DNA of 64,000 bases, taken from the NCBI GenBank assembly GCA_963749155.1, contig CAVVLO010000001.1:192001-256000 (forward strand), in the 5' to 3' direction. Every line of letters begins with the position of its first letter. Position 1 is the first letter of the stretch. This DNA is from an uncultured Armatimonadia bacterium. GTDB lineage: Bacteria; Armatimonadota; Zipacnadia; CAVVLO01. Of this stretch, positions 1 through 47,677 are shown piece after piece. Under the pieces are notes generated by a model. That model ran no database searches, was not told the DNA's origin, and saw nothing but the letters and a program-made list of their open reading frames with translations. Both the position numbers and the translations under genes were made by a program.

Positions 1-409
1 TATCGGGGAAGCGCCGGCTTTCTTCAGTGTTCAATCCTATCAGTAAAGTATCGGCGCGCAACTCTTCGGCAAAGGAAGCGGCGATATTTACGAAAACGCC
101 ATTGCGGTTGGGTACCCACAGGTCCTGCGGGCCAGATTCGGCCTTGTCCACTTCGAGTGGGGCGCCTGGCCGGTTTAGCGAGGCAGATGAGATACGCGCA
201 AGCCAGGGGAGTTCGACAACTTCATGCCGAACGCGATAATGGCCTGCGATCTGGGCTGAGCGCTCCAGTTCGCGTCTAGTGGCTCGCTGGCCATAGTCAA
301 AAGTAAGAGCCAGAGCGACCGAACCGCCTCCCGCCAGAAAAGTAGCCAGGGTTACGGTAGAATCCAGTCCAGCCGAAAGTAACGCCACCGCGCGTGACAT
401 CTGGTTCAT
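1..409 (-). CDS. queC: 7-cyano-7-deazaguanine synthase QueC (3' part outside the window)
   Basis: Not in the ORF track. Manual translation gives MNQMSRAVALLSAGLDST...TFDYGQRA..RE...WVPNRNGVFVNIAASFAE...FPD, which are QueC motifs. The ATG overlaps the queD stop (ATGA). Confidence 0.9.
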   Translation of the reverse strand, partial: MNQMSRAVALLSAGLDSTVTLATFLAGGGSVALALTFDYGQRATRRELERSAQIAGHYRVRHEVVELPWLARISSASLNRPGAPLEVDKAESGPQDLWVPNRNGVFVNIAASFAEELRADTLLIGLNTEESRRFPD

Positions 410-5365: not shown

Positions 5366-8291
5366 TTAGTCTTGCGCCAGCCATTGTAGCAAATCCAGCA
5401 GCAGTTGCTTCTCCCAGCCCTTGACCGGGACCTCTTCGCCCGCCACATAACCAGGCACCAGTCCGCAGAGTACTACTTTCCCCTGGCCAAAAGTTCCAGC
5501 TACCACAACAGGCTGGCCCTTGCTGTCTTGCAGCACAACGCTGGCCCGGTCGGTCGCGCTGAGGGCGATATGGTCCGAATAGGCAGGGACGAACTTCTCC
5601 CCTGGCGCCAGGGCAGTTTTTACAATTGGGGCAGGCCTGGTCGGAACCCAGCAAGAACGTTTCTCCTCTCGGCCAAGGCCGCTGCCGAGTTCAGGGAAGG
5701 GCGTCAGATGCACCCGGAAGCCGACTGCATCGTGGGTCAGCATTACTCGCCCGCCGGTTCGGACCCATTCGCGCAGTCGATTGAGAGCTCTTGGCGAGAG
5801 CAAATCAGGCGCGCTGACCTGCGGGATTATCACAACATCAACTGCGGCGAGGAATTCCGGATCGATGCGCGCCAGATAAACGGGATAAAATCCAGCTACT
5901 TCTTCCAACGTCGCCTTGATGCCACTGCTGCCGACGCCAGGCTCGAGGATGCCGACTTTAGGCAGGTCGGTCTCGATGACAGGCGGGGCAAGCTCTGCCA
6001 GGAGCTTATCCTGCGGCCTCCTCTGAAAGCCCTTGAAACACGGCGCTCCTGCGCGTGAAGGCGCGTTTTATGCCGCCAGCCAGGGCCAACTCGCCGCTGA
6101 TGACAAGCTGACTGGGGCCCTCTGGCACTTCAAAGGCCAGGTCCTGGATACCGTCATAACGCGCCACGGGAGCAAGCTCCTGGGCCTTCTGACTGCCCAG
6201 GTTAATCAAGGAGAAATGTAGTTCGTCGAGGCTGACGCCTTCGTTTTCTGCCAATTTGGCGCCAACTATCAGTTGCGCGCCAGCGTGGTAGCTTGTCGGC
6301 GCCTCGCTCACCAGGCCCTGGGGAAGCAGCCAGGTCACCACGGGTGCGGGCACAGGCACTTCCGCCGGCTGGCTCAAGGGCCCTTTTGCCAGTTGAGCCA
6401 CTCCCTCGGTTGGCAGCCAGCCACTGTAGCTGAACAGCACAAAGCCATCCGCTCCGGCCGATTTCGCCAGGGCAAGCTGATGCAAGGTCTCCTCGGGCGA
6501 ATCGTGCAGATAGGAGCCAATCCCGATTGCAACGGGCACACGGCCTTCGGCTCGTTTCACATCGTCCTGGGCATATCTGGAAAGAGTTGACGAATCCGCT
6601 GTGTAGTCCATCGGGCAGACAAAATCGATATAGCCCTCGCGCGCCCAGGTGGGCCAGTCCTGCTTGATTGTGTAGCGCGAAGTAGCCGAACGCGGGAAGA
6701 CAGCCGCCGAGACCTGCACCCAGGGCTTGATGGCCTTTACCTTACGATAAACCTCGCGCACCAGCGAATTGATATTGCCTTGCTCCCACTGGATGTAGGC
6801 GCTCTGCAAATCTCCTGTAAGCACGTCATCCGGCCAGTTCTCGACCTTCACGCCCAGCGCCTGCTCGAAGTTCCGACGGCAGGTGGCGCAATAACAGAAG
6901 CTGGTGTTGGGATATCTGATGTAATCGAAGTGAACGCCGTCCACATCGTAGTTTTCGGCCATCTCGAGCATCGCGGCGACTTCGACCTGGCGGTTGCGCT
7001 CATTGGAGGGGCAAGCCCAGGTGTAGCCTTGCTCTCCACTTGCATCGCGCACCAGGCGGTCTTCGGCGGCCAGTTGCTCGTAATACCACTTGGGCGCGGT
7101 GCCGAGGTGGAAATTGACGCGCCAGGCATGCAGCTCGAGTCCGTATTTGTGCGCGGCAGCCACCGACTGGGCAAGCTGGTCGCCTTTGCTCTGGGCCCAG
7201 GTATCCATCGGCAATATGGCGCTCTTGTAGATGCAATTGCCGCCCCTGGCCATTCTGGGGATGACCATATTGAAACCATTACGGGCAAGATTGGCACATT
7301 CTTTATCCCAGTTGGTGGAAGAATCTGGCACAAGCCAGACCCCGCGAAATTCTGAGGGGGCGGGTGGATGAGCGCGCGCATAAGCTTCTTGCAAGGCCTT
7401 GCTGGCCTCGGTAAGAGCGAGGTCGGCTTCTACGAAAAGGCCCCGCATCAGGTGACGTTCGGCTTTGGCGAATTTCTCCTCGGCAAGAGTTGCCCAGGAA
7501 AGCGCCTCGGTGATGCGCTGACTGGCAGGTTGAGAGTTGATGTATGCGCGCAACTCTTCGACGGTCTCGAATTCGCCAAGTTTGAGCGCGCGCGCGGCCC
7601 GGCGCTCAAGAGCGCCCTTCCAGGCTTTGGGGGCTACCTGGGCGATAAGCGCGCCGATTAGCCTGGCCTGGGCTTCTCCATCCGCGCCGGTCAGGACATG
7701 CCCTACGTAGAAACCTGCCGGCGACTCGATGAGCGCTGGGATGCCAGTGGGCTTGCCTTTGGAATCGCGCCATTCTCCGACTACGCGAGCCGAGGGTAAG
7801 AGAGTGGGGACGAATACGTTCCAGGAGTTGAAGCGCACAGCGACAGGTGCTCCTGGCACTGGTTCGGCGCTCTGGACAATCTCGGCGAACTGACCGTCAT
7901 AGTCCGGGCTTGTGTAAGTGAGCGACTCGACCCCAACGAGGCGCGCTACAGCGGGAGAAGCTGTATAGAGTACGATGAGCTTGCCACCGCTGGATACAAA
8001 ACTCGAAAGGGATTCTTCCAGCTCGGGCGAGAAGGTGTTAAGGGGAAGCACCGCCGCCTGATAGGGCGCAAGCGCGCTGGCGGTGGCCTGCTCCTGAGTC
8101 AGCGTATCGAAAAGCACTCCGGCTTCGGTCAGCGCCTTCTGCACTTTTTCTATATAAACTCCGGAGGAGCCCGCATCAGCTCGCGAGATGAGCACCAGGT
8201 CGTTTTTCACGGCGCCAGCCTCCTGTCCCCAACCTGCCTGGACCAGGCTGATTCCTCCAAAGAGCAGGAGCAACCCGAATAGCCTTCCCAT
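5366..8291 (-). CDS. Secreted GHL10 (DUF187)-like glycoside hydrolase with flanking GATase/ThuA-like domains (frameshift near 6013)
   Basis: Signal peptide; FRGVW, GLELHAW, YDVDGVHFDYIRYP and QDWPTW...IDFVCPMDY motifs. The shifted frame continues QDKLLAELAPP... directly into ORF 5366-5908. Confidence 0.75.
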
Positions 8292-8373: not shown

Positions 8374-11300
8374 CTAGTCCACCACCTCTAGTACAACGCT
8401 GACCGTCGAAATCCCGCCATCCCCATCGTTAGCCTCGAAATTCAGATTCCAGACACCGATTTGCGAGTAAGTGGGCGTCCAGCGGAAGACGCCTCCGGTT
8501 GTCATCTGCGCGCCTGGGGGAAGCGGCATCACACTACAGGTTACAGGATCTCCATCAGGATCAGTCACAGCAAGCTGCAATTCGAAGAGCTGCCCCACCT
8601 CGAGCATCGCGTCGGCTGGATCAGTCAGTCTGGGAGGCGTATTGAGGATAGTTATATCCGCCTGCCCTTCCGGCCCCAAATCCAGCCCATCGGAAGCCTG
8701 GATGACGCAGCGCCAGAGGTCGTGCTTGGTGGTGAGGGTCTTCGAGAGGCTCTTCGTGGTCTGGCCTTCCACAAGCTGGAAAGTTGCGCCTCCATCGGTG
8801 GATTTGTACCACTCGACCAGATAACTGACCGGGTCGCCATCTGCGTCGGTGGCTGCAGCGGAGCAATAGAGATTGCTCCAGGTTGTCGGACTGGTTGGGT
8901 AGATAACTGGCGAGAGGGCAGTGGGAGGGGCGTTGACTACGAGCGCTTCAGCTTCGGCTCTGGCCACTTCCAGCAGGTCATCAAAGGCCGCGCAAACACA
9001 CCGGATAGAGTCTCCTCTTACATAATTACCAGGGTCAAGGGTAGGCTCAGTCTCGCTTGCCAGAGGCAGCCAGTCTCCTGTCGAGGCCGGCTTCAAGAAC
9101 CAGGAATAGTTAAGGTCATATTCCGCTTTACTTTCATCAAGTACTTCTACGACCGCTTCCACTGGATCATTGCGAGTCGGTTCGGTCGGCGCGAGTGCAA
9201 GTCCAAGCACCGGAGCTGCCGCGCTGGTTACGGTGACCAGGATAACGCGACTTCCCTGGGCGCCGTCGTTGTCAGTGACGGTGAAAGTGAGCTGATGCTG
9301 GCCCACCTGGCTCTCGTCAGGCAGCCATTCGAGCTGTCCAGTGGTAGGCGAAAAACTTGAGCCCTCAGGCACAGGGCTTAATCCAAAGGCAAGCGGGTCA
9401 CCATCGGAATCTTTCCCAATCGGGACAAGAGTCAGCACTGCTCCTGCTTCGATACTGGCATCAGCCAGGCCATCCAGCCAGGGCGCCGAGTTGAGGATGG
9501 TCGTATCAGCGCTGGCACGTGGACTCTCGGCCACCCCGTCGCTGGCCCACAGTTCGCAGCGCCACACTTCATGCTTGGTTGTAAGCGTCTTGGAGAGGCT
9601 CTTGGTGGTCTGTCCTGTCACAAGCTGGAAGGTTTGGCCTCCATCGAGCGATTTATACCACTGCGCCATATAGGTCAGGGCATCACCATCCGGGTCACTG
9701 GAGGCTCCGCTGCAATAAAGGTTGCTGTAAGTATTGGGATTGTCCGGTAATATCCGCGGCGAAGGGGCAAGGGGCAAGGCGTTTACCACAGTGACGTTGG
9801 CCTCGACTGGCGCGCCGCTCTGGGCCGAATCGGCAGGAGTGCAAACACAGCGCAAGGTATCGCCCCGAGCGAAGAAAGAACTGGCTAGCGTGTCACTCGA
9901 CTGCCCACCAAGCAGAGTGAAATCGGCCTCTCCCGCAGGCTTCAGATACCACTGCCACTGCAGTGTGACCGCGCCGCCCCCGCCTTCCTGCACTTCGTGG
10001 GCTGTTGCGATGAGCGCCGTGTCGGTAGTCGGCTGAGATGGAGTCAACGTGAGGCTGCCCACGACCGGCGGGCCAGTGCGTTCGACAGTGAGCAGTGTGG
10101 TCAGACGCGCCTCGCCTCCAGCGCCGTCAGTCACGACGAACTCCAGTGGGTATTCGCCCCAGTCCTCTTCCTCAGTAGCCCAGCTCAGCTGCCAGTTTTC
10201 AAAGGTTGCTCCTTCTGGCAGGCCTGTTATCTGCAGGGTCAGGTCGTCCTGGTCGGCATCCGAGGCGGATAAATCAAAAGCTACTGGCTGGCCTGCGTCC
10301 ACCTCGAAGGTGGCCGGGCCAAGCAAGGTCGGTGGGGTGTTGCCAGCTAGTGTTGAAAAGCTCCAGTCGTAATCGAGCAGGTTCGGTGGCGTGGCCAGGT
10401 CAGCCGCCTGCGCGCGCACTGTAAAAGTCGCGCCATGAGGCAGCGCGGTCTCGGGAGTCCAGCGCAATATGGCCTCTTGCTCTTCAAAAGTATACTCAAT
10501 TGCTACCGGCTCGCTCTCGAAAGCCAGGCCAAAAGTTGCCGGATCAAGGCCGGTTGGGTCGAAGAGATGCACTGAAACAAGCGGTTTGCAAAGCAATCCT
10601 GTGGCGCTGGGGGCTGGCGTCACCCCCAGCACCTGGGGGGGTGAGTTGTCCACGATAAAAGAGACCGGCTCGCTGGCAAGTGAAGCGACCAGATCCTGCG
10701 CGACGGCTCTGGCAAAGACTTCTCCCTCCTGATATTCAGGGGGCAGCAAGGCCAAGTCCAGAGTGGTACAGCCACTTATCGGCAGACCTGAGCGAGCGGT
10801 CCACCAGTTGCTGCCTCCATCGGCGCTGAGCTGCAAGCTGACCGAGGGATTCAAACTGGGCGAATCAGCACCCGTCCAGCAGAAGACTTGCTCTCCCGCG
10901 CGGGCTCCGCCATCTGGATCAAGCAGGACCAGTTCCAAAGGCCGGTGGAAAGCGACAGGCGCCTGCAGGATTAACTGATGGGTATCCCAGAGGCGCGCGC
11001 CTGCCTCATCCCACAGGCGCATCTCCAACTCCACCAGGCCGTCGGAAGCCAGAGCCAGCAACTGCCTGTCGAGAGGAAATTCCGTTTGCCCAAGTCCGCC
11101 GGCAATTATGACTTGTTGCTGCCACCAGCTCTGTCCGGTTGTCGGCGAATAGAGTTCGACCTGGCAATTATGGGCGCCCACATCGCTTGAGCCAAGCCAG
11201 ACTTTAACCAGGCAGCTTTCCGCCAGGCCATCGTTAGTGGCGTCCTGAACCTGGGTCACCAGCACGTCAGCCAGATAACAAACGTAAAAGGTGTCAAAAG

Positions 11301-39789: not shown

Positions 39790-40857
39790 TTAGATAGGCT
39801 TGATTACTACTTCCTTGCCTTTGGCGGCCGACTCGTAAATGGCATCGAGCATCTTCATAAGCCAGATGCCGTCTTCCTCGGTCGCGACTGGCGTCTTGCC
39901 CTCAAGCAGGCAATCTACGAAAGCGCGCACTTCGGCGGCGATCCAGGAGCCACTCGGCGGGATATGCGGAGTGACATCCTGCTGGACGCCATCTTTTTCG
40001 GTGAAGAGGCGGAAGGGATCGAGCGTGCAGCCGGCTTTCTCGCCGAACAGCTCGAAGACGCCCTGCTCGCGCTCGACGAAGCTGGCCCAGGTGGCCTCGA
40101 GCTGGATGGCCGCGCCATTCGCGAAGCGGATCATCCCGAAGGTGTTGTCATCCACATCGAAGGTGCCACCCGTGACGTGAGTGCCCCAGCCGCCAAGGCC
40201 TTTGCCCTGACCGCCAAATTTGTCGAAGGAGACGCCTACGGCGCTGACCGGGGTCGGCTTGCCCATAAGGTACCAGGTGAGGTCAAGTGCGTGCACGCCG
40301 ATGTCTATCAGCGCGCCGCCGCCTGCGAGGGCTTTGGTCGTGAACCAGCCGCCGTAGCCGGGGATGCCGGTGCGACGCAGCCAGCCGGTGCGGGCGAAGT
40401 AGATATCGCCAAATTCGCCGGAGTCTACCATCTGCTTCACATATTTGGCTTCGTTGCGGAAACGCTGGCACATCGCCATCACGAACAGGGGCGGCTTCTT
40501 CTGAGAGTCGCGCCAGGCCTTGATTTTCAGGGCCTCTTTGGCGGTGACGGACATCGGCTTCTCGCACAGCACGTTCAGACCTGCCTCGAGGCAGTCGAGG
40601 GCGATTGGCACGTGGAAGGCGTTAGGCGTGCCGATGCTTACGCAGTCCAGCTTGGACTTCTTCAGCATCTCTTTGTGATCAGTGTAGATTTCTGGAACGT
40701 TGAAGTCCTTGGCGAACTGCTCGGCCCTGGCCCCGTCCTTGTCGCAGATGGCGACGAGTTCGGCTCGCGGGTCGGCGACGTAGCCTTCGGCGTGCGCGCG
40801 GCCGATGCCGGCGCCGACTATGGCGGCCCTCACTTTGGTTTTCTTACTGGCGGGCAC
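39790..40857 (-). CDS. Gfo/Idh/MocA family oxidoreductase
   Basis: AIVGAGIG; TPNAFH; VLCEKPM; GGGALIDIGVHALD. Confidence 0.93.
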   Translation of the reverse strand: MPASKKTKVRAAIVGAGIGRAHAEGYVADPRAELVAICDKDGARAEQFAKDFNVPEIYTDHKEMLKKSKLDCVSIGTPNAFHVPIALDCLEAGLNVLCEKPMSVTAKEALKIKAWRDSQKKPPLFVMAMCQRFRNEAKYVKQMVDSGEFGDIYFARTGWLRRTGIPGYGGWFTTKALAGGGALIDIGVHALDLTWYLMGKPTPVSAVGVSFDKFGGQGKGLGGWGTHVTGGTFDVDDNTFGMIRFANGAAIQLEATWASFVEREQGVFELFGEKAGCTLDPFRLFTEKDGVQQDVTPHIPPSGSWIAAEVRAFVDCLLEGKTPVATEEDGIWLMKMLDAIYESAAKGKEVVIKPI

Positions 40858-41052
40858 GATGACCCCTCCCTGTTTTTATTATGCCTCATATTGAGCTTTC
40901 TGGCTTCGGGCATTCTACACGACTTGCGCCCCTCCTTCACCCCCTTGCCAGTTTCGGCTTGCAGGGAACCAATTACAGTGCGAGAAGTTCTAGCTAATAA
41001 GCTTGCTTTATGTCCCAGATTACCCGCTAACACTAACAAGGGGTTAAGGACA

Positions 41053-42255
41053 ATGAAAGCACCAAAGCAGCACTTGGCACTCCTCATCATTCTGTTAATA
41101 GGGTTGTCTCTCCTAGTCACGCTGCCCGGTTGTCGGCACTCAGACAGTCGACCACCAAACCACCCCATATTACAGCAGCAAGGGCCGCCGCCCACACTGC
41201 CGCCCTTCGCCGTGAAGGGCAACAGCAGTGACTTCAGGACCGTCCAGTTCGTCCCCACGCTCGATACTCCACTGGAGGGGAGTATAAACGCCATCTGGTG
41301 CGCTTCTTTCGAGCTGGCCTGGCGGCAGTTGATAGATGAAGTACTGAAAGAGCCTGTGAAGCTTGTGCCCGAGAAGCCCATCGTTACGCGCTTGAACGCC
41401 TCGCCCTTCTCCAAGAGCTGGCTGCCGGACGGCAACTGGTTCGCAGTGGCAGGATACGTGGATGAGGGCATCCTCCAACGTATTAAAGACGGGATGAAAG
41501 CGTTTCCTGACGCAACGCCCCCAGATCTCAGTGAGTATGAAAACACACCCTTCCTGGTCACATATGGGTACCTGAGGGGCGATGTGGTGTTCGATAAACC
41601 ATTCCTGAAAGAGGAAGGCAAGCTGAGCTTCACCAGTGCTGGCGGGCAGGCCCAGCCGGTCAAAGCCTTTGGCGTGCTGCGCGACGACTTTGGCCAGGTG
41701 GAGGTGCGCGGCCAGGTGGAGGTGCTGTATAGTTCGACTGCAGGAGACAGCGCGTCTGATGAGTTCGCACTGGACCTGTCCAGAGCTACCGAGCCCTCAC
41801 AGCTTGTTGTGGCGTGTGTGAAGCCCGAGGTTACACTAGGGGCCACTCTGGATGCGCTGGACGCGAAGATCAGCGGCTGGCGGCCGGAGAAGGGACAACG
41901 GGAACTGCGCGACGACGACGACCTGATGGTGCCCACTATGGGACTCTCTCTGCTCCACAGTTACCAGGAGCTACTAGGGCTCAAGCTGGAGAATCCCGTC
42001 AAGATGCAGCACAACCCGGTGCTTCGGGCGGATCAGCTTGTGGACTTCCGCCTAACGAGGTGGGGCGCGCAGTTGTCATCCTACGGTGCAATGGTGGTAG
42101 GTTCAGCAGCCATATCGCATGGCCGCAAGTTCGTCTTCGACCGCCCCTTCCTCGTGTATATGAAGAAGCGCGGGGAGAAGACGCCCTACTTCGCGATGTG
42201 GGTGGCGGACGCAACCTTTATGTATCAGGGGAACAATACTTCTCAGGCACCTTAG
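41053..42255 (+). CDS. Serpin-like lipoprotein, paralog 1
   Basis: Start ATG 41053 after AAGGA; LPGC lipobox; NAIWCASFELAW; C-terminal Q.VDFRL..WGAQLSS...FVFDRPFLVYM...PYF resembles the serpin hinge, reactive loop and signature. Confidence 0.7.
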   Translation: MKAPKQHLALLIILLIGLSLLVTLPGCRHSDSRPPNHPILQQQGPPPTLPPFAVKGNSSDFRTVQFVPTLDTPLEGSINAIWCASFELAWRQLIDEVLKEPVKLVPEKPIVTRLNASPFSKSWLPDGNWFAVAGYVDEGILQRIKDGMKAFPDATPPDLSEYENTPFLVTYGYLRGDVVFDKPFLKEEGKLSFTSAGGQAQPVKAFGVLRDDFGQVEVRGQVEVLYSSTAGDSASDEFALDLSRATEPSQLVVACVKPEVTLGATLDALDAKISGWRPEKGQRELRDDDDLMVPTMGLSLLHSYQELLGLKLENPVKMQHNPVLRADQLVDFRLTRWGAQLSSYGAMVVGSAAISHGRKFVFDRPFLVYMKKRGEKTPYFAMWVADATFMYQGNNTSQAP

Positions 42256-42325
42256 GCAGCATACTCTGCGTTCTGGTATAGGGAGACGATACATAAGGAT
42301 GAAGAAAGCTCTGATCGCTGCTCTT
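42145..42325 (+). repeat. 181-bp direct repeat, copy 1 (gene 3' end, intergenic region and start of next gene)
   Basis: Matches 43460-43640 with 4 mismatches by manual alignment. Confidence 0.95.
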
Positions 42326-43570
42326 ATGTTTTTGGCGATGGTGCTTGTATGTATGGCGGCACTGGCCACCCCACCTGAGCTATTCGACGATGAGGAGGGC
42401 TTAGAAAAGTACCTGGAGGCATGCCAGGCAGCCGAGGATGAGGACGGCTTCGTGGACTTCTTCAAGCTGCCGAGGGAGTACTGGCCGGAAAGGCTGGAGG
42501 GGCTGGTCTTGCCGCCGCTGGCCTTCGATGGCACAACCTGGGGCCTCGAAGATGTGCAGTTCGCGCCCACCTTTGACACAGTCATGGAGTCAGCCAAGAA
42601 TGTTTTATGGTGCGCGACCTTCGAACTGGCGTGGCGCCAGTTGATAGACGAAGTCCTGAAAGAACCTGTGAAGCTCGATCCGCCCAGTCCTGTTGCCGAC
42701 CGGCTGAACGCCTCAAAGACTTCAAGTAAGCAGATACCAGAAGGTCAATGGTTTGCGGCTGCGGGGTTCGAGGACGAAGGCGTACTGGACCGCATCAGTC
42801 AGGGGCTTGCGGCTTTTCCCGGGGCTCAGCAGCCAGACCTCAGCGAGTATGTGAATACTGGTGACCTCATCACCTATTCGTATCTCGCGACAGATGTCAG
42901 GTTCAAGCCGGAGTTCAGCCAGCATGATGATCGCCTGATCTTCACCTCGAGTGATGGCAGCAAGCACAGGGTCAAAGCTTTTGGGCTTACAGAAGAAGAT
43001 TCTTGTTGCGACGACCAGCACGAGTCGGTGCGAGTGCTCTATTGTTCCGAAGAAGGCTCAGGCCAGCCCCGCGAGTTCGCTTTAGACCTGTGCCACTACA
43101 GCAAGCCTAGCCAGGTTGTAATAGCCTGCGTAGAGCCGGCGGGCACACTGGAAGCGACAGTGGCCAGCGTGGAGGAGAAGATCGCCAACTGGCATCCGGA
43201 CGATCTCCTGGCGCGGAAGCTGAGCAACTACGAGCAACTGTTAGTCCCCGATTTGGGCTTCCGCCTCCTTCACAGCTACAAAGAGTTGCTTTTGCATGTG
43301 CTGGCCAATCCAGGAAAGGGTGAGGGATTGTCAATCGTGCGGGCGGAGCAACTGGTCAACTTCCGCCTTACCAAGTATGGCGCGGTGCTATCTTCCTATT
43401 CTATGATGATAGCACTTGGCTACGAGCGGGGCGTAGGCAGGTCCTTTTACTTTGACAAGCCCTTCCTCGTGTATATGAAGAAGCGCGGGGAGAAGACGCC
43501 CTACTTTGCGATGTGGGTGGCGGACGCAACCTTTATGTATCAGGGGAGCAATACTTCTCAGGCACCTTAG
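42299..43570 (+). CDS. Serpin-like secreted protein, paralog 2
   Basis: Sec-type signal (ALA/T); NVLWCATFELAW; FYFDKPFLVYM. Confidence 0.7.
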   Translation: MKKALIAALMFLAMVLVCMAALATPPELFDDEEGLEKYLEACQAAEDEDGFVDFFKLPREYWPERLEGLVLPPLAFDGTTWGLEDVQFAPTFDTVMESAKNVLWCATFELAWRQLIDEVLKEPVKLDPPSPVADRLNASKTSSKQIPEGQWFAAAGFEDEGVLDRISQGLAAFPGAQQPDLSEYVNTGDLITYSYLATDVRFKPEFSQHDDRLIFTSSDGSKHRVKAFGLTEEDSCCDDQHESVRVLYCSEEGSGQPREFALDLCHYSKPSQVVIACVEPAGTLEATVASVEEKIANWHPDDLLARKLSNYEQLLVPDLGFRLLHSYKELLLHVLANPGKGEGLSIVRAEQLVNFRLTKYGAVLSSYSMMIALGYERGVGRSFYFDKPFLVYMKKRGEKTPYFAMWVADATFMYQGSNTSQAP

Positions 43571-43640
43571 GCAGTATACTCTGAGTTCTGGTATAGGGAG
43601 ACGATACATAAGGATGAAGAAAGCTCTGATCGCTGCTCTT
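43460..43640 (+). repeat. 181-bp direct repeat, copy 2
   Basis: Matches 42145-42325 with 4 mismatches. Confidence 0.95.
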
Positions 43641-44990
43641 CTTCTGCTACCAGCGTTGCTCCTGGTACTGCCAGGCTGCCAGCAGTCAACGAGCCGATCG
43701 CCCCAGCAGCCCGTGGCACTAACGCTTCAACAGCCCGAGCTGGGCTCTCCTCTGGGGGGGCATGAGAAGAACAACCTGCGGCTGGTGAGTGGCAGCGAAG
43801 AACGGCGCGTATATAGCATGGAGGCCCTCGATGCTATCGCTGATGCCATGGATGAGTATGGCCATATAGACTGGTCCAGGGTGCCTGCCGAGTATGTGCC
43901 CGAGTCGGTGCGCGAAGCCAAGCTGCCCCCGCCTGCCGTCTCGGGCAACAGCCAGACCTACCCGACGGTGCGGTTCTGCCCGACGTTGTCCAGTTCCTTC
44001 GATCCCAAGAGAAATGCGCTGTGGTGCGCGTCCTTCCAACTCGCCTGGCAGCAGTTGTCAGACGAAGTGCTGAAGGGGCCGGTGAAGGTTGTCCCAGCCA
44101 ACCCAGTCGTTGATGAGTTGAATGCGGCGCCGTTTTCAAAGATGTGGATTCCCGATGGCTGCGCTTTCGCCGCCGCTGGTTATGGAGATAAGGGCATCGT
44201 TAAGCGGATTGAAGAGGGGATGAAAGCTTTCCCAGACGCTAACGTGCCGAATTTCAAAGAGTATAAAGGGAAAAAGTGTCTAGTTTCTTTCGGTTACCTT
44301 ACGAGCGATGTCCTTTTCCGGGCGCCCTTCTTGGACAAGCCGACTGGACTGGATTTCACCGCACTGGATGGCACTGTTTGGCCGGTCAAGGGGTTCGGAG
44401 TGCTGCAGAAGGATTATGGGCGCGTATACGAGCGCGAGCAAGTGACCGTGTTGTACTACGCATCGTCAACGGACAACCAGCCTGCCGAGTTCGCGCTGGA
44501 CCTGTGCAAGTATTCGCAACCGAGCCAGCTTGTGGTGGCTTGCGTGAAACCTGAAGCCACGCTCCAGGCCACTCTCGAGGCCCTCGAAGCGAAGATGAAG
44601 GGCTGGAATCCAGAGGAGGAGAAGGACCGCCATCTGCAGGACGAGGACGACCTGCTTGTGCCGACGCTGGGATTGTCTCTGTTGCACTCGTATGACGAGA
44701 TTCTGGGCGCCATGCTGGCCAATCCGGTCAGGGGGCAAGGGTGGCCCTTTGTGCGCGCCGAGCAGAAGGTAGACTTCCTCCTGACGCGTTGGGGCGCGCA
44801 GCTGTCTTCATATGGTGTAGACGTGGCACTGTGTGCCACGATGCACCAGTACCGACACTTTGTCTTCGACCGCCCCTTCCTCGTGTATATGAAGAAGCGC
44901 GGGGAGAAGACGCCCTACTTCGCGATGTGGGTGGCGGACACAACTTTTATGTATCCGCAGGAGCCGGTCGAGGAGCCGGCCACTCAGTAG
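43614..44990 (+). CDS. Serpin-like lipoprotein, paralog 3
   Basis: Start ATG 43614 in the same context as 42299; LPGC lipobox; NALWCASFQLAW; FVFDRPFLVYM. Confidence 0.7.
   Translation: MKKALIAALLLLPALLLVLPGCQQSTSRSPQQPVALTLQQPELGSPLGGHEKNNLRLVSGSEERRVYSMEALDAIADAMDEYGHIDWSRVPAEYVPESVREAKLPPPAVSGNSQTYPTVRFCPTLSSSFDPKRNALWCASFQLAWQQLSDEVLKGPVKVVPANPVVDELNAAPFSKMWIPDGCAFAAAGYGDKGIVKRIEEGMKAFPDANVPNFKEYKGKKCLVSFGYLTSDVLFRAPFLDKPTGLDFTALDGTVWPVKGFGVLQKDYGRVYEREQVTVLYYASSTDNQPAEFALDLCKYSQPSQLVVACVKPEATLQATLEALEAKMKGWNPEEEKDRHLQDEDDLLVPTLGLSLLHSYDEILGAMLANPVRGQGWPFVRAEQKVDFLLTRWGAQLSSYGVDVALCATMHQYRHFVFDRPFLVYMKKRGEKTPYFAMWVADTTFMYPQEPVEEPATQ
44862..44955 (+). repeat. Partial third copy of the repeat (94 bp)
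   Basis: Matches 42133-42226 with 2 mismatches. Confidence 0.92.
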
Positions 44991-45310
44991 TTGAAGCGCG
45001 ACAAGGTCTGGAAAAACAGCGCCAGCCAGGGCGAGGAGAAGATCATCACCAGGCTGAGGCCAATGCCGTAGCGGTCCCAGATGTCCATATCCTTGCGGAA
45101 ATCAGCGATCGAGGCATGCCGGCCATGACGCCAGGCGATGGCGTCACCACTGCGGGCCAGGATGTAACCGGCCAGGATTGGGCCGATGAAAGGCAAGGCG
45201 CAGAAGAGGACAAGCGCGGCCAGTCCCTCCAGCCAGGCACGGTGGAAGAAAGCCCACATAAAGGAAAGCCCGAAGGCGCCCCAGTTCCAGCTACGCAGCA
45301 CACGAGCCAC
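44984..45310 (-). CDS. Small membrane protein with WNWGAF motif (DUF2628-like)
   Basis: GTG start after AGGAGGAGG; WNWGAF...W...; G..IAWR. Confidence 0.7.
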   Translation of the reverse strand: MARVLRSWNWGAFGLSFMWAFFHRAWLEGLAALVLFCALPFIGPILAGYILARSGDAIAWRHGRHASIADFRKDMDIWDRYGIGLSLVMIFSSPWLALFFQTLSRFNY

Positions 45311-45314
45311 GTGG

Positions 45315-45899
45315 CTAGCCCTCCTCCTGGGCCCGCTCATCGGCCTCGATGAGGAAAGGCAGCAGTTCTTCTGGTTCGGGCAAGGCTTCTCCTTCGAGCG
45401 CGGGGAGCCTCGGTAGCTCCTCCAGAGTGGACAAGCCCAGCGCCTGAAGGAAGAGTTCGGTCGTGCCATAGAGCCGGGGCTTGCCTGGCGCATCTTTGCG
45501 CCCCACTGTGCGGATAAGTCCGCGGCGCTCCAGCCGGTCGACCAGATAGGCCGAATTTACCCCGCGCAGTTCTTCAACTTCGGGCCTGGTAATAGGCTGG
45601 CGATACGCGATGATGGCGAGCGTGACCATAGCGGCGGGGGAAAGACGCGCCGGCGGGCGGGAGAGGAACTTCTCGACCCAGAGGGCTACCTCGGGCCGGG
45701 TTACCAGTCGCCAAAGGCCGTTGAGGGAGACAACCTGCAGCCCTCCCTCGTGCGAGAGGCGTTCTCTAAGAAGGGCCAGGCCCTCGGAGACCTCTTCTTC
45801 GGGCAGCTCGAAAAGCTGGGCGAGCTGTTCGAGGCTTGCGCCCTCTTCCGAAACAAACAGTACGGCCTCAAGAGCCGCCGAGAGCTTCTCAGCTTCCAC
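45315..45899 (-). CDS. scpB: SMC-Scp complex subunit ScpB
   Basis: LEAVLFV; LSPAAMVTLAIIAYRQPITR.EVEELRGV; PGKPRLYGTT..FL..LGL..L.ELP. Confidence 0.95.
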   Translation of the reverse strand: MEAEKLSAALEAVLFVSEEGASLEQLAQLFELPEEEVSEGLALLRERLSHEGGLQVVSLNGLWRLVTRPEVALWVEKFLSRPPARLSPAAMVTLAIIAYRQPITRPEVEELRGVNSAYLVDRLERRGLIRTVGRKDAPGKPRLYGTTELFLQALGLSTLEELPRLPALEGEALPEPEELLPFLIEADERAQEEG

Positions 45900-46678: not shown

Positions 46679-47677
46679 CTAGCTCGACCTCGCCAGGTTC
46701 AATTTGGACCGGACTTCTTCCAGTGTGGCCTCGGCCACATCGCGACTTTTGGCGCTGCCAGCCTCGAGGATATCCCAGACCTCGCCTGGGCGCTGGGCCC
46801 AGTAGGCCTGTTTTTCCTGGATAGGCGCAAGCCGCTCGGACAGCAGTTGCATAAGCTGCTTCTTGCAAGCAACGCACCCAAGTCCGCCAGCCTGGCATTC
46901 CTTTTTAAGTTCAGCGACTTCCTCGGCGGGGGAGTAGACTTCCCTGAAGGCGAACACCGCGCACCCTTCCGGGTGGCCAGGATCGTCTTTCCGCAGCTTG
47001 GTCGGATCGGTGAACATACTGTTGACTTTCTCCTGCAGCGCCTTGGCGTCATCGGCCAGGTAGATGGCGTTGTCGAGGGACTTGCTCATCTTCTTCTGGC
47101 CATCGAGGCCCACGATGCGCGCGGTCGTCGTAACCAGAGCCTGCGGCTCGGGGAAGGTGTCACCATAAATATAGTTGAATCTCCGCGCAATCTCGCGGGT
47201 GATCTCCAGATGAGGGATCTGGTCCTCTCCAACTGGTACACAGTCAGACTTGTAGACCAGGATGTCCGCTGCCTGCAGCACAGGATAACCGAGCAGGCCA
47301 TAAGAGGCGTTCTCGCGCAGGTCCAGTTCGCGCAGCCACTCCTTATAGGTGGGGCAACGCTCCAGCCAGCCAAGGGGAGTAATCATCGAGAGCAGCAGAT
47401 GAAGCTCGGCGTGCTGCGGTACCCGCGACTGGATCATCAGCGTCGAGACCTCGGGCTCCAGCCCGACGCTCAACCAGTCGATAGTGACGCCGAGGATGTT
47501 CTCCTGCAGGTCTTCGACCTTCTGATAGCCAGTGGTAAGCATATGCCAGTCGGCGATGCCGAATACGCAGTCATACTCGTGCTGCAGCTTCACCCAGTTG
47601 GAGAGAGCCCCTTCGAGATTGCCCAGGTGAAGTCGGCCGGTCGGCCTCATTCCGGAAAAGATACGTCCTTTTGCCAA
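46679..47677 (-). CDS. trpS: Tryptophan--tRNA ligase
   Basis: SGMRPTG.LHLGN; YPVLQAADIL; VPVGEDQ; KMSKS. Confidence 0.97.
   Translation of the reverse strand: MAKGRIFSGMRPTGRLHLGNLEGALSNWVKLQHEYDCVFGIADWHMLTTGYQKVEDLQENILGVTIDWLSVGLEPEVSTLMIQSRVPQHAELHLLLSMITPLGWLERCPTYKEWLRELDLRENASYGLLGYPVLQAADILVYKSDCVPVGEDQIPHLEITREIARRFNYIYGDTFPEPQALVTTTARIVGLDGQKKMSKSLDNAIYLADDAKALQEKVNSMFTDPTKLRKDDPGHPEGCAVFAFREVYSPAEEVAELKKECQAGGLGCVACKKQLMQLLSERLAPIQEKQAYWAQRPGEVWDILEAGSAKSRDVAEATLEEVRSKLNLARSS

Follow-up and report, generated by a model that had tools for sequence, protein, structure and literature searches.

Variable loop segments beside homogenised 3' tails in three tandem, very distant serpin homologues of an uncultured Armatimonadia bacterium

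Does a loop that differs almost completely between three neighbouring genes, directly upstream of DNA that is almost identical, point to a set of protease baits under diversifying selection? The question is raised by a stretch of 64,000 nucleotides from an uncultured Armatimonadia bacterium (contig CAVVLO010000001.1, positions 192,001 to 256,000; here called the window), in which the open reading frames and their translations define three tandem genes, g1 to g3, all on the + strand. An earlier note had read the three products as inhibitory serpins with reactive-centre loops of fixed length and hypervariable sequence; if true, the bacterium would have a set of serpin inhibitors, each with its own bait, an idea that the evidence presented here does not support. 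The genes, their loop-equivalent segments and the repeated tracts downstream are listed below; lipobox and signal-like assignments were judged by eye from the sequence.

41053-42255, + strand: g1, 400 aa; serpin-fold paralogue, putatively exported, with a lipobox-like LPGC at the N-terminus
42064-42129, + strand: loop-equivalent segment of g1, residues 338-359 of the translation
42135-42325, + strand: homogenised tract, copy 1; 3' tail of g1, 43-nt spacer and first 27 nt of g2
42299-43570, + strand: g2, 423 aa; paralogue with a putative hydrophobic, signal-like N-terminal segment without clear lipobox
43379-43444, + strand: loop-equivalent segment of g2, residues 361-382 of the translation
43450-43640, + strand: homogenised tract, copy 2; 3' tail of g2, spacer and first 27 nt of g3
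43614-44990, + strand: g3, 458 aa; paralogue with a lipobox-like LPGC
44793-44858, + strand: loop-equivalent segment of g3, from the translation
44852-44955, + strand: homogenised tract, partial copy 3; 3' tail of g3 only

Serpin homology, hinge and predicted conformation

Neither PF00079 nor any other Pfam family matched g1, g2 or g3 at E ≤ 1, and a PF00079 search across the whole genome gave no match; at E ≤ 0.01, 7 of 40 family members match PF00079, the best with 1.3e-7. When a profile of these 40 sequences was compared with the PDB, 45 distinct sequences were found at E ≤ 1 and all are serpins. The best match is PAI-1 (E 3.3e-6, profile positions 276-353, corresponding to the hinge-to-s4B block), in an alignment that places the hinge Gly on the P15 Gly and DRPFL on DRPFL. 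The AF2 models of g1 and g2 (pLDDT 87.0 and 88.3) are predicted to have the three-sheet serpin fold, in which s5A, the loop, s4B and s5B follow one another. Foldseek returned 122 matches at E ≤ 0.001 (best E 3.6e-9), serpins in all cases shown, with TM-scores to serpins of only 0.29-0.44; among the best 50 VIA matches of each model, all those shown are likewise serpins (g1: Z 12.8-14.1, best rmsd 4.9 with 248 aligned residues; g2: Z 14.5-17.1, best rmsd 4.6 with 277 aligned residues). The three proteins are genuine but very distant homologues of the serpin superfamily.

The family contains at least 2179 clusters at 50% identity (E ≤ 1e-30), and its 184 genomic relatives are mostly from Planctomycetota MAGs; a serpin-related clade of this size without Pfam or NCBIfam recognition is an annotation gap. 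The genome studied here has ten copies in two arrays: in the phylogenetic tree all ten form one clade with g1-g3 as a sub-clade, and g1-g3 are closest to one another (52-61% identity; no other sequence exceeds 38%). Fusions to ankyrin or WD40 interaction domains occur in some relatives. Of 97 neighbouring ORFs of 32 loci only one encodes a protease, an M42 aminopeptidase, and no protease gene was found in the window flanks of g1-g3.

The loop-equivalent region consists of a conserved hinge and strand part (G-A-x-L-x-S-x-A/G, then alternating hydrophobics), a connector and a conserved anchor (R-x-F-x-F-D-R/K-P-F-L); in g1, the hinge and strand part corresponds to residues 338-349 and the variable connector to 350-359. 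The connector appears to be under little constraint in sequence or length. To count the hinge Gly as P15 and residue 15 as P1, as done previously, is formally fair: it agrees with the PAI-1 profile alignment and with the cleaved serpins, whose A chains end at P1 and align to residues 67/69..352 of the g1 model (for example 7api_A, 34..358).

The motif of inhibitory hinges, as given in an excerpt of PMC8233489, is ExGTEAAAA for P17-P9, with x being E, K or R. The corresponding residues are R-W-G-A-Q-L-S-S-Y in g1 and g3 and K-Y-G-A-V-L-S-S-Y in g2, and do not fit this motif. Of 91 family copies, 77 have R at P17 and 6 have E; 88 have A or V at P14 and one has S; 80 have L or V at P12. The hinge of this clade breaks the rules used for calling serpins inhibitory. 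Of the 44 loops with 18 residues, 34 have Pro as the formal P1'. Conservation within the loop is limited to P-R, a pair tied to the C-terminal side whose distance to the hinge varies. The residues at even-numbered positions of the hinge (A, L, S, A/G, then hydrophobic) are compatible with a strand that can insert, such as true inhibitors have, and the strong conservation of the hinge could reflect an inhibitory mechanism.

Both AF2 models place the hinge inside sheet A, with different predicted extents of insertion. In g1, residues 338-349 are modelled as a strand paired after 322-335 (block pLDDT 95-97), followed by a connector of pLDDT 61 (351-360); in g2, the strand covers 361-367 and ends at P9, the pLDDT is below 50 at 367-370 and the next blocks have values of 63 and 57. 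Among the best 50 VIA matches of g1, 22 are titled cleaved or loop-inserted and none is titled native; in the g2 search, the gap between cleaved and native serpins is small, the native ones scoring about 1-1.6 Z lower. The abundance of cleaved forms among solved serpin structures may bias AF2. The deviating hinge and its predicted insertion in both models do not support the proposal that the three loops are different baits. Judged from sequence and models, g1-g3 are most likely non-canonical and probably non-inhibitory, and we infer that they do not act as suicide inhibitors of the canonical type, with P1 at residue 15.

Length and variability of the loop segment

There are exactly 22 residues from the hinge Gly to the signature Phe in the translations of 42064-42129, 43379-43444 and 44793-44858, as the earlier note had stated. 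The fixed loop length that it had deduced does not apply to the family: the distance is 18-29 in 40 family members (18 in 24 of them, 22 in 6) and 18-28 in 91 copies from genomic ORFs, with a mode of 18 (44 of 91). In the seven other paralogues of the same genome it is 18 in five, 20 in one and 25 in one. Length changes repeatedly along the family tree and varies freely among homologues, from 18 to 28 or 29. Because g1-g3 are closest relatives within one clade, their common value is one observation and not three: a single state that is inherited from one ancestor rather than constrained. Moreover, according to the summary of Zhou et al. 2001 in PMC4493575, the length constraint in inhibitory serpins concerns the part between hinge and scissile bond; the Gly-to-Phe span (20 in PAI-1, 22 in g1-g3) is not this constrained part.

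The distal halves of the loops are indeed nearly unrelated: nucleotide identity in a 15-codon window is 29-49%, the lowest among all core windows, versus about 45-80% in the other core windows of g1-g3. At the protein level, the mean pairwise identity of the loop is 0.17 in 10-residue windows, tied with segments 181-190 and 227-236, and in 13-residue windows the loop is lowest (0.18 versus 0.23). The standard deviation of length is 3.0 at positions 350-365, 3.0 at 230-234 and 3.4 at 276-283. Some extra divergence of the loop is real; the exceptional variability claimed before is not, given the ties with other surface loops in 10-residue windows.

In the distal loop, pN is close to pS or a little above it (g1/g2: pN 0.72, pS 0.68), with both saturated, and after saturation this is also the pattern that positive selection would leave. 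Two comparably diverged paralogues of the same genome, c1 and c6 (57% overall identity), share 15 of 18 loop residues. No loop alleles were found in contigs of four metagenome runs from related strains, a comparison of low power, at 1-2% divergence and with rare variants hidden. Across these four samples the loops are identical apart from four point differences: at 43391 and 43444 in g2, and at 44802 and 44810 in g3, the latter two synonymous by reading. Saturated sites, the absence of loop alleles from the contigs and the similar loops of c1 and c6 leave the earlier claim of diversifying selection unsupported, and we infer that the connector is relaxed, not positively selected.

Homogenised tracts and competing explanations

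The DNA downstream of the loops behaves differently. Copies 1 and 2 of the tract are 96% identical over 191 nt, spanning coding sequence, spacer and coding sequence again; over 104 nt, 42123-42226 matches the g2 copy at 88% and the g3 copy (44852-44955) at 94%, and the alignment of partial copy 3 diverges past FMY. The identity of about 98% reported previously is right in being high and too uniform; single 45-nt windows reach 93-98%. The dS value is 0.12-0.23 in the tail, versus 1.5-2.3 in the core. Contigs of other samples contain the joints 42132->44862 and 42315->43827, and the 3' edge of the loop is where the conversion tract ends. The contrast between loop and downstream DNA is sharp because gene conversion or unequal crossing-over homogenises the stretch from the 3' tail across the spacer into the next gene.

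We consider it reasonably likely, overall, that g1-g3 are old tandem duplicates with drifted loops and converted tails, from a non-canonical branch of serpins. The ancestor would have been a putatively exported protein of a large, unannotated and divergent branch of the superfamily that is common in Planctomycetota-type metagenome genomes. The duplication would be old enough for synonymous sites to be saturated, and the distal halves would have drifted to unrelatedness since then, like several other surface loops; exchange within the array would keep tail, spacer and the next gene's start near-identical. A general caution follows: a hypervariable stretch next to an identical one in tandem paralogues can stem from local gene conversion and not from diversifying selection. 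More tentatively, the clade may be a serpin derivative with its hinge permanently in sheet A. It would then be a natural latent-like, non-inhibitory scaffold on which the former bait loop has become a free, length-variable surface connector, and this genome would have ten exported copies that differ in the connector and whose flanks are homogenised by gene conversion.

The abrupt end of the conversion tract at the loop edge could alternatively reflect selection for distinctness, if the proteins are not suicide inhibitors and the connector serves as a specificity or binding loop on a loop-inserted scaffold, kept different between copies. The ten-copy expansion in the lineage, the ankyrin and WD40 fusions of some relatives and the AF2 models, with inserted hinge and low-confidence exposed connector, are consistent with this. 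We nevertheless regard it as rather unlikely: the saturated sites yield no positive evidence for selection, variation is as great in other loops, c1 and c6 have kept their loop, and the tract may simply end at the point where homology no longer suffices for conversion.

Canonical inhibitory serpins with exposed loops (P1-P1' of A-A, Y-E and A-T), diversified for different proteases, would explain the serpin fold, the alignment of the Gly with P15 and the position of model residue 352 near the P1 end of cleaved chains, as well as a distal loop that is the least conserved core stretch in 13-residue windows and has a pN of at least about pS. Export, with lipobox-like motifs in two of the three proteins, would resemble the surface serpin miropin, and ten copies in two arrays would be expected of an arms-race family. 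Even so, this reading is unlikely: the hinge fails the motif at P17, P14, P12 and P9 and is inserted in both AF2 models, loop length is free in the family, Pro is the formal P1' in most 18-residue loops, and the conserved P-R keeps its distance to the C-terminal side and not to the hinge. In addition, other loops are equally variable, the c1/c6 loops were kept, the contigs contain no loop alleles and, apart from one M42 aminopeptidase among 97 neighbouring ORFs, no protease gene turned up next to the genes. Programmed hypervariation of the loop by a diversity-generating retroelement or by cassette switching between copies would fit a variable stretch that adjoins a highly conserved 3' flank, but is highly improbable, as 40800-45300 contains no extra copy of loop DNA that could be a template repeat, the copies cannot be aligned, with differences at every type of base instead of at adenines only, and the loops in the contigs of four samples are the same bar four point differences.

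Comparison with known serpin systems

With canonical inhibitory serpins such as PAI-1 and alpha-1-antitrypsin, g1-g3 share the fold, the s5A-Gly hinge and the F-x-x-D-R/K-P-F-L block. The position equivalent to His334, a shutter residue of serpins, is an invariant Gln in the family, as in PAI-1 (in one profile alignment). Differences to canonical inhibitory serpins are R/K instead of E at P17, A instead of T/S at P14, L at P12, Y at P9 and a Gly-to-Phe distance of 22 instead of the 20 of PAI-1. Classical serpins have nine helices, whereas the g1 core has only five predicted helices of at least 4 residues.

The serpin clusters of animals (tick, rodent) are also tandem paralogues that differ most in the loop region, but they have kept the hinge consensus and the P-side length, which g1-g3 have not, and their inhibition has been shown. 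Tandemly duplicated serpins have been described in ticks. Miropin of Tannerella forsythia, a bacterial, exported, lipoprotein-type serpin, as proposed for g1-g3, belongs to the recognised PF00079 serpins and is proven to inhibit via several bonds of its loop. In contrast, g1-g3 have a non-consensus hinge. Miropin structures (5nct, 5ncu, 5ncw) are among the structural matches, and an excerpt of PMC8233489 describes miropin as an efficient plasmin inhibitor.

According to the same excerpt, the Streptomyces clade of Group U (Spence et al. 2021; PMC8233489) consists of divergent prokaryotic serpins that are suspected to be non-inhibitory. As far as this account goes, both that clade and the present family comprise serpin homologues of prokaryotes in which conserved regions have diverged strongly. 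In many of those serpins the hinge follows the consensus, and BLAST finds them at E < 1e-10 (excerpt of PMC8233489), whereas the present clade is missed by Pfam and its hinge no longer fits the consensus.

Cleaved and latent serpins (cleaved antichymotrypsin, latent PAI-1) are the conformations that both AF2 models match best. In the models, the hinge forms a strand beside s5A; the chains of g1 and g2 are uncut here, and the predicted insertion would be either constitutive or partial. Should the hinge indeed be inserted as predicted, the family would show how the metastable serpin fold can turn into a stable scaffold.

The tandem genes and their serpin fold

The tandem paralogs g1, g2 and g3 were defined as ORFs and translated; longer upstream ORF extensions overlap an opposite-strand GFO/IDH/MocA gene and were therefore taken as spurious.

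Family genes and neighbouring ORFs in the window
41053-42255, plus strand: g1, 400 amino acids
42299-43570, plus strand: g2, 423 amino acids
43614-44990, plus strand: g3, 458 amino acids
37896-39785, minus strand: flanking ORF, 629 amino acids, no Pfam family at E<=1e-4
44984-45493, minus strand: flanking ORF, 169 amino acids, no Pfam family at E<=1e-4, sharing a few bases with the end of g3
46679-47677, minus strand: class I Trp/Tyr-type tRNA synthetase gene, close to the family genes

Identity to g1 is 52% for g2 and 60% for g3. By sequence reading, g1 and g3 have a hydrophobic N-terminal stretch that closes in the lipobox-like LPGC, and g2 has a hydrophobic N-terminus without a lipobox. The window flanks code for a GFO/IDH/MocA oxidoreductase, ScpA, ScpB, a class I W/Y tRNA synthetase and a poly(A) polymerase/CCA-type enzyme. 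In four of 32 other loci (L023, L031, L035 and L036), too, a tRNA synthetase gene of the class I Trp/Tyr type is close to a family gene, and this vicinity may be inherited synteny.

Single-sequence searches were unproductive, and a family profile was thus needed to find the serpin relation: none of the three proteins matched a Pfam family at E<=1 or, with phmmer, a PDB sequence at E<=10, and a profile search of the whole 4.17-Mb genome found no PF00079. The sole NCBIfam row, pantothenate kinase, was rejected as chance (E 0.043, with a score of 13.5 bits where the cut-off is 288). A homologue search returned 39 proteins, nearly all unnamed, with a best non-self identity of 37-38%; two have a precomputed PF00079 match and one is named 'Serpin domain-containing protein'. 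At E<=1, the profile of 40 sequences matched 45 distinct PDB sequences, every one a serpin, with PAI-1 as the best (3.3e-6): the match spans the block from before s5A to s4B, and aligns the Gly with the P15 Gly of PAI-1 and the two DRPFL strings with each other. Seven of the 40 family members match PF00079 at E<=0.01. The AF2 models of g1 and g2 are confident (pLDDT 87.0 and 88.3). Foldseek gave 122 matches at E<=0.001, with TM-scores of only 0.29-0.44. In VIA structure comparisons, the 50 best rows for g1 range from Z 12.8 to 14.1, with some 250 aligned residues at an rmsd of about 5 Å, and those for g2 from 14.5 to 17.1. In the ESM Atlas, 27 of the 30 nearest clusters are unnamed and three are in a set with PF00079 on 15% of its members, which we treat as a lead only. 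Taken together, the profile matches to serpins, PF00079 in relatives and the structural matches make the assignment of g1-g3 to the serpin fold sound, in a very divergent branch.

This genome has a further tandem array of the family on a second contig (L011), which brings the number of copies to ten; most other genomes have one or two per locus.

Second array on contig L011
2591-11052, minus strand: six intact copies and one split into three ORFs
6315-6725, 6599-7144 and 7056-7415, minus strand: ORFs of the broken copy, same family

Length and variability of the loop segment

The segment equivalent to the reactive-centre loop was counted from the hinge Gly (P15) to the Phe; the 22-residue strings are exact translations of 42064-42129, 43379-43444 and 44793-44858. 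The earlier note had read them as different baits of fixed length and hypervariable sequence, but the length is not fixed. The 40-sequence alignment has spans from 18 to 29: 18 (24 sequences), 22 (six, three of them g1-g3), 24 (three), 25 (two) and 19, 21, 23, 27 and 29 (one each). The fetched loci hold 96 family ORFs, of which three lack the region and two lack the initial Gly; in the 91 that start with Gly the span is 18 (44 ORFs), 19 (9), 20 (3), 21 (1), 22 (7), 23 (8), 24 (6), 25 (5), 26 (2), 27 (5) or 28 (1). The loops of the second array have 18, 18, 18, 18, 18, 20 and 25 residues. In a midpoint-rooted FastTree phylogeny of 90 copies, with clades read from the topology, the copies of this genome, ten in all, group in a single clade with g1-g3 as a sub-clade within it, and length switches many times among near relatives. 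The length variation across the family and the grouping of g1-g3 thus indicate that the 22 residues common to all three are a single inherited state. In inhibitory serpins, the length constraint applies to the part from hinge to scissile bond (Zhou et al. 2001, as summed up in a passage of PMC4493575); the span from Gly to Phe, 20 residues in PAI-1, falls outside this constraint.

The distal loop is indeed the least alike part of the gene cores, with a minimum of 29-49% nucleotide identity in a 15-codon window. The hypervariability stands only to this extent: the distal loop is strongly diverged, but other unconstrained surface loops are comparable. In 10-residue windows, the mean identity of the loop (0.17) is tied with segments 181-190 and 227-236, with segment 209-218 at 0.20; with windows of 13 residues, the loop has the lowest value (0.18 versus 0.23). 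Across the family, the standard deviation of length is 3.0 for the connector (the variable distal part, 350-365), 3.0 for loop 230-234 and 3.4 for loop 276-283, and both of these loops exceed the connector in column entropy. Spence et al. 2021 omitted the loop C-terminal of the hinge for its hypervariability (in a passage of PMC8233489), which makes variability at this place a general property of serpins. Loop divergence is also no rule, even inside this genome: two second-array copies, c1 and c6, share 57% identity overall and 15 of 18 loop residues. Of the connector, only a Pro-Arg pair is conserved (66 of 91 copies have the Pro and 65 the Arg); it precedes the Phe by two to three positions, so that its place is tied to the C-terminal side and its spacing from the hinge varies. 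The genes g1-g3 retain just the Arg (in g1 the residues before F360, 42121-42126). With surface loops elsewhere as variable, we consider a non-canonical 'specificity loop' in g1-g3 unlikely. As a description, the observation in the note is accurate. With free loop length and ordinary variability, the two findings named beforehand as speaking against it, the inference of baits under diversifying selection is not supported.

Flank homogenisation, selection and strain differences

The cores of g1-g3 (pS 0.65-0.72, dS 1.5-2.3, dN 0.36-0.53) are anciently diverged, and codons 360-391 have a dS of just 0.12-0.23.

Near-identical tracts in the array
42135-42325 versus 43450-43640, plus strand: 191 nucleotides, 96% identity
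44852-44955, plus strand: partial tract in g3, coding part only, 94% identity

The tract begins where the loop ends and extends past the stop codon and a 43-nucleotide spacer into the first 27 nucleotides of the next gene, a pattern characteristic of gene conversion or unequal crossing-over between array members. The contrast between loop and flank is real, but tells more of homogenisation of the flank than of selection on the loop. Contigs from other metagenome samples join 42132 to 44862 via 89 shared bases (X3), and 42315 to 43827 and 41068 to 42608 (X2); these joints may represent strains that differ in copy number, or jumps of the assembly via the 89-nucleotide shared tract. The first two agree with conversion or crossing-over, though assembly jumps could give the same picture. 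All three joints would delete or fuse array members via the shared tract.

In the second array, likeness is again higher in the tails (up to 0.89) than in the gene bodies (0.52-0.64), and five copies share the terminus AELMRKR. Despite their 57% overall identity, c1 and c6 (L011 2594-3949 versus 8624-9895) share long stretches of full identity, such as LSLAYLRGGAVF and NPYYLYQQVGFSLTASGALVESTAG, which suggests patchy gene conversion in this array too.

For the distal 14 codons of g1-g3, pN (0.54-0.72) and pS (0.56-0.68) are both saturated and their ratio near 1 is uninformative: with synonymous saturation, also in the cores, and only 14 codons, relaxation and positive selection are inseparable. 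For a population comparison, we used assembled contigs of four metagenome runs with related strains, which leave the region partly uncovered in some runs. There are 25 differences in a 1269-nucleotide contig over g2 and 17 in a 530-nucleotide contig over g3. Only four among those listed are in the loops: by sequence reading, the difference at 43391 turns a hinge Ser into Ala, and those at 43444, 44802 and 44810 are synonymous. The g1 loop is matched exactly by a contig covering 42001-42132. Among the differences listed for the four runs, no loop alleles were seen, at a divergence of 1-3% that gives low power. A DGR or cassette source of the loop variation was rejected from the paralog alignment, strain contigs and tract comparison.

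We propose that g1-g3 are an anciently duplicated, divergent serpin-fold trio with predicted export, in which the surface connector would have drifted and the 3' flank would have been homogenised by gene conversion.

Hinge, mechanism and the wider clade

Gene neighbourhood suggests no partner protease, either in the window flanks or in the 97 ORFs scanned out of 330 candidate neighbours; these 97 come from the 32 loci L012-L043 and include no serine protease and one M42 aminopeptidase.

The clade comprises 4238 clusters of 50% identity at E<=0.001 and 2179 at E<=1e-30; the genomic relatives (n=184) are mostly Sedimentisphaerales, Phycisphaerae and Pirellulales MAGs. Our literature searches found no description of it in open-access papers or bioRxiv. 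Among 12 longer relatives that were scanned, two have fused ankyrin or WD40 repeats in long repeat regions (P0170, 1477 amino acids; P0131, 688 amino acids) and the N-terminal extensions of the other ten (about 110-350 residues) have no Pfam domain; the fused domains give no functional clue.

In the AF2 model of g1, residues 338-349 form a strand right after s5A (pLDDT 95-97) and the variable part has a pLDDT of 61; the titles of its best 50 VIA rows name a cleaved or loop-inserted form in 22 cases and a native form in none, and one row is a covalent complex. The model of g2, built from a 147-sequence alignment, inserts just 361-367, with a short strand at 382-384, and its VIA Z scores (16-17 for cleaved, at most 15.5 for native serpins) differ by a margin near a tie. 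The predictions lean towards a relaxed, hinge-inserted scaffold.

The hinge, the conserved strand part of the loop, was compared with the motif of inhibitory serpins, ExGTEAAAA at P17-P9 (as stated in a passage of PMC8233489). The hinges of g1-g3 are off this motif at P17 (R/K), P14 (A), P12 (L) and P9 (Y). Among the 91 copies, 77 have R and six have E at P17, 88 have A or V at P14, and 80 have L or V at P12. Of the 44 loops of 18 residues, 34 would have Pro as the formal P1'. That g1-g3 present canonical baits, as their common 22 residues and diverged distal loops had suggested, is unlikely with such hinges and with a length that varies freely in the family. The mechanism of g1-g3 is probably non-canonical and possibly non-inhibitory, and the wider interest lies in a large, unannotated clade that is related to serpins and has a non-consensus hinge.
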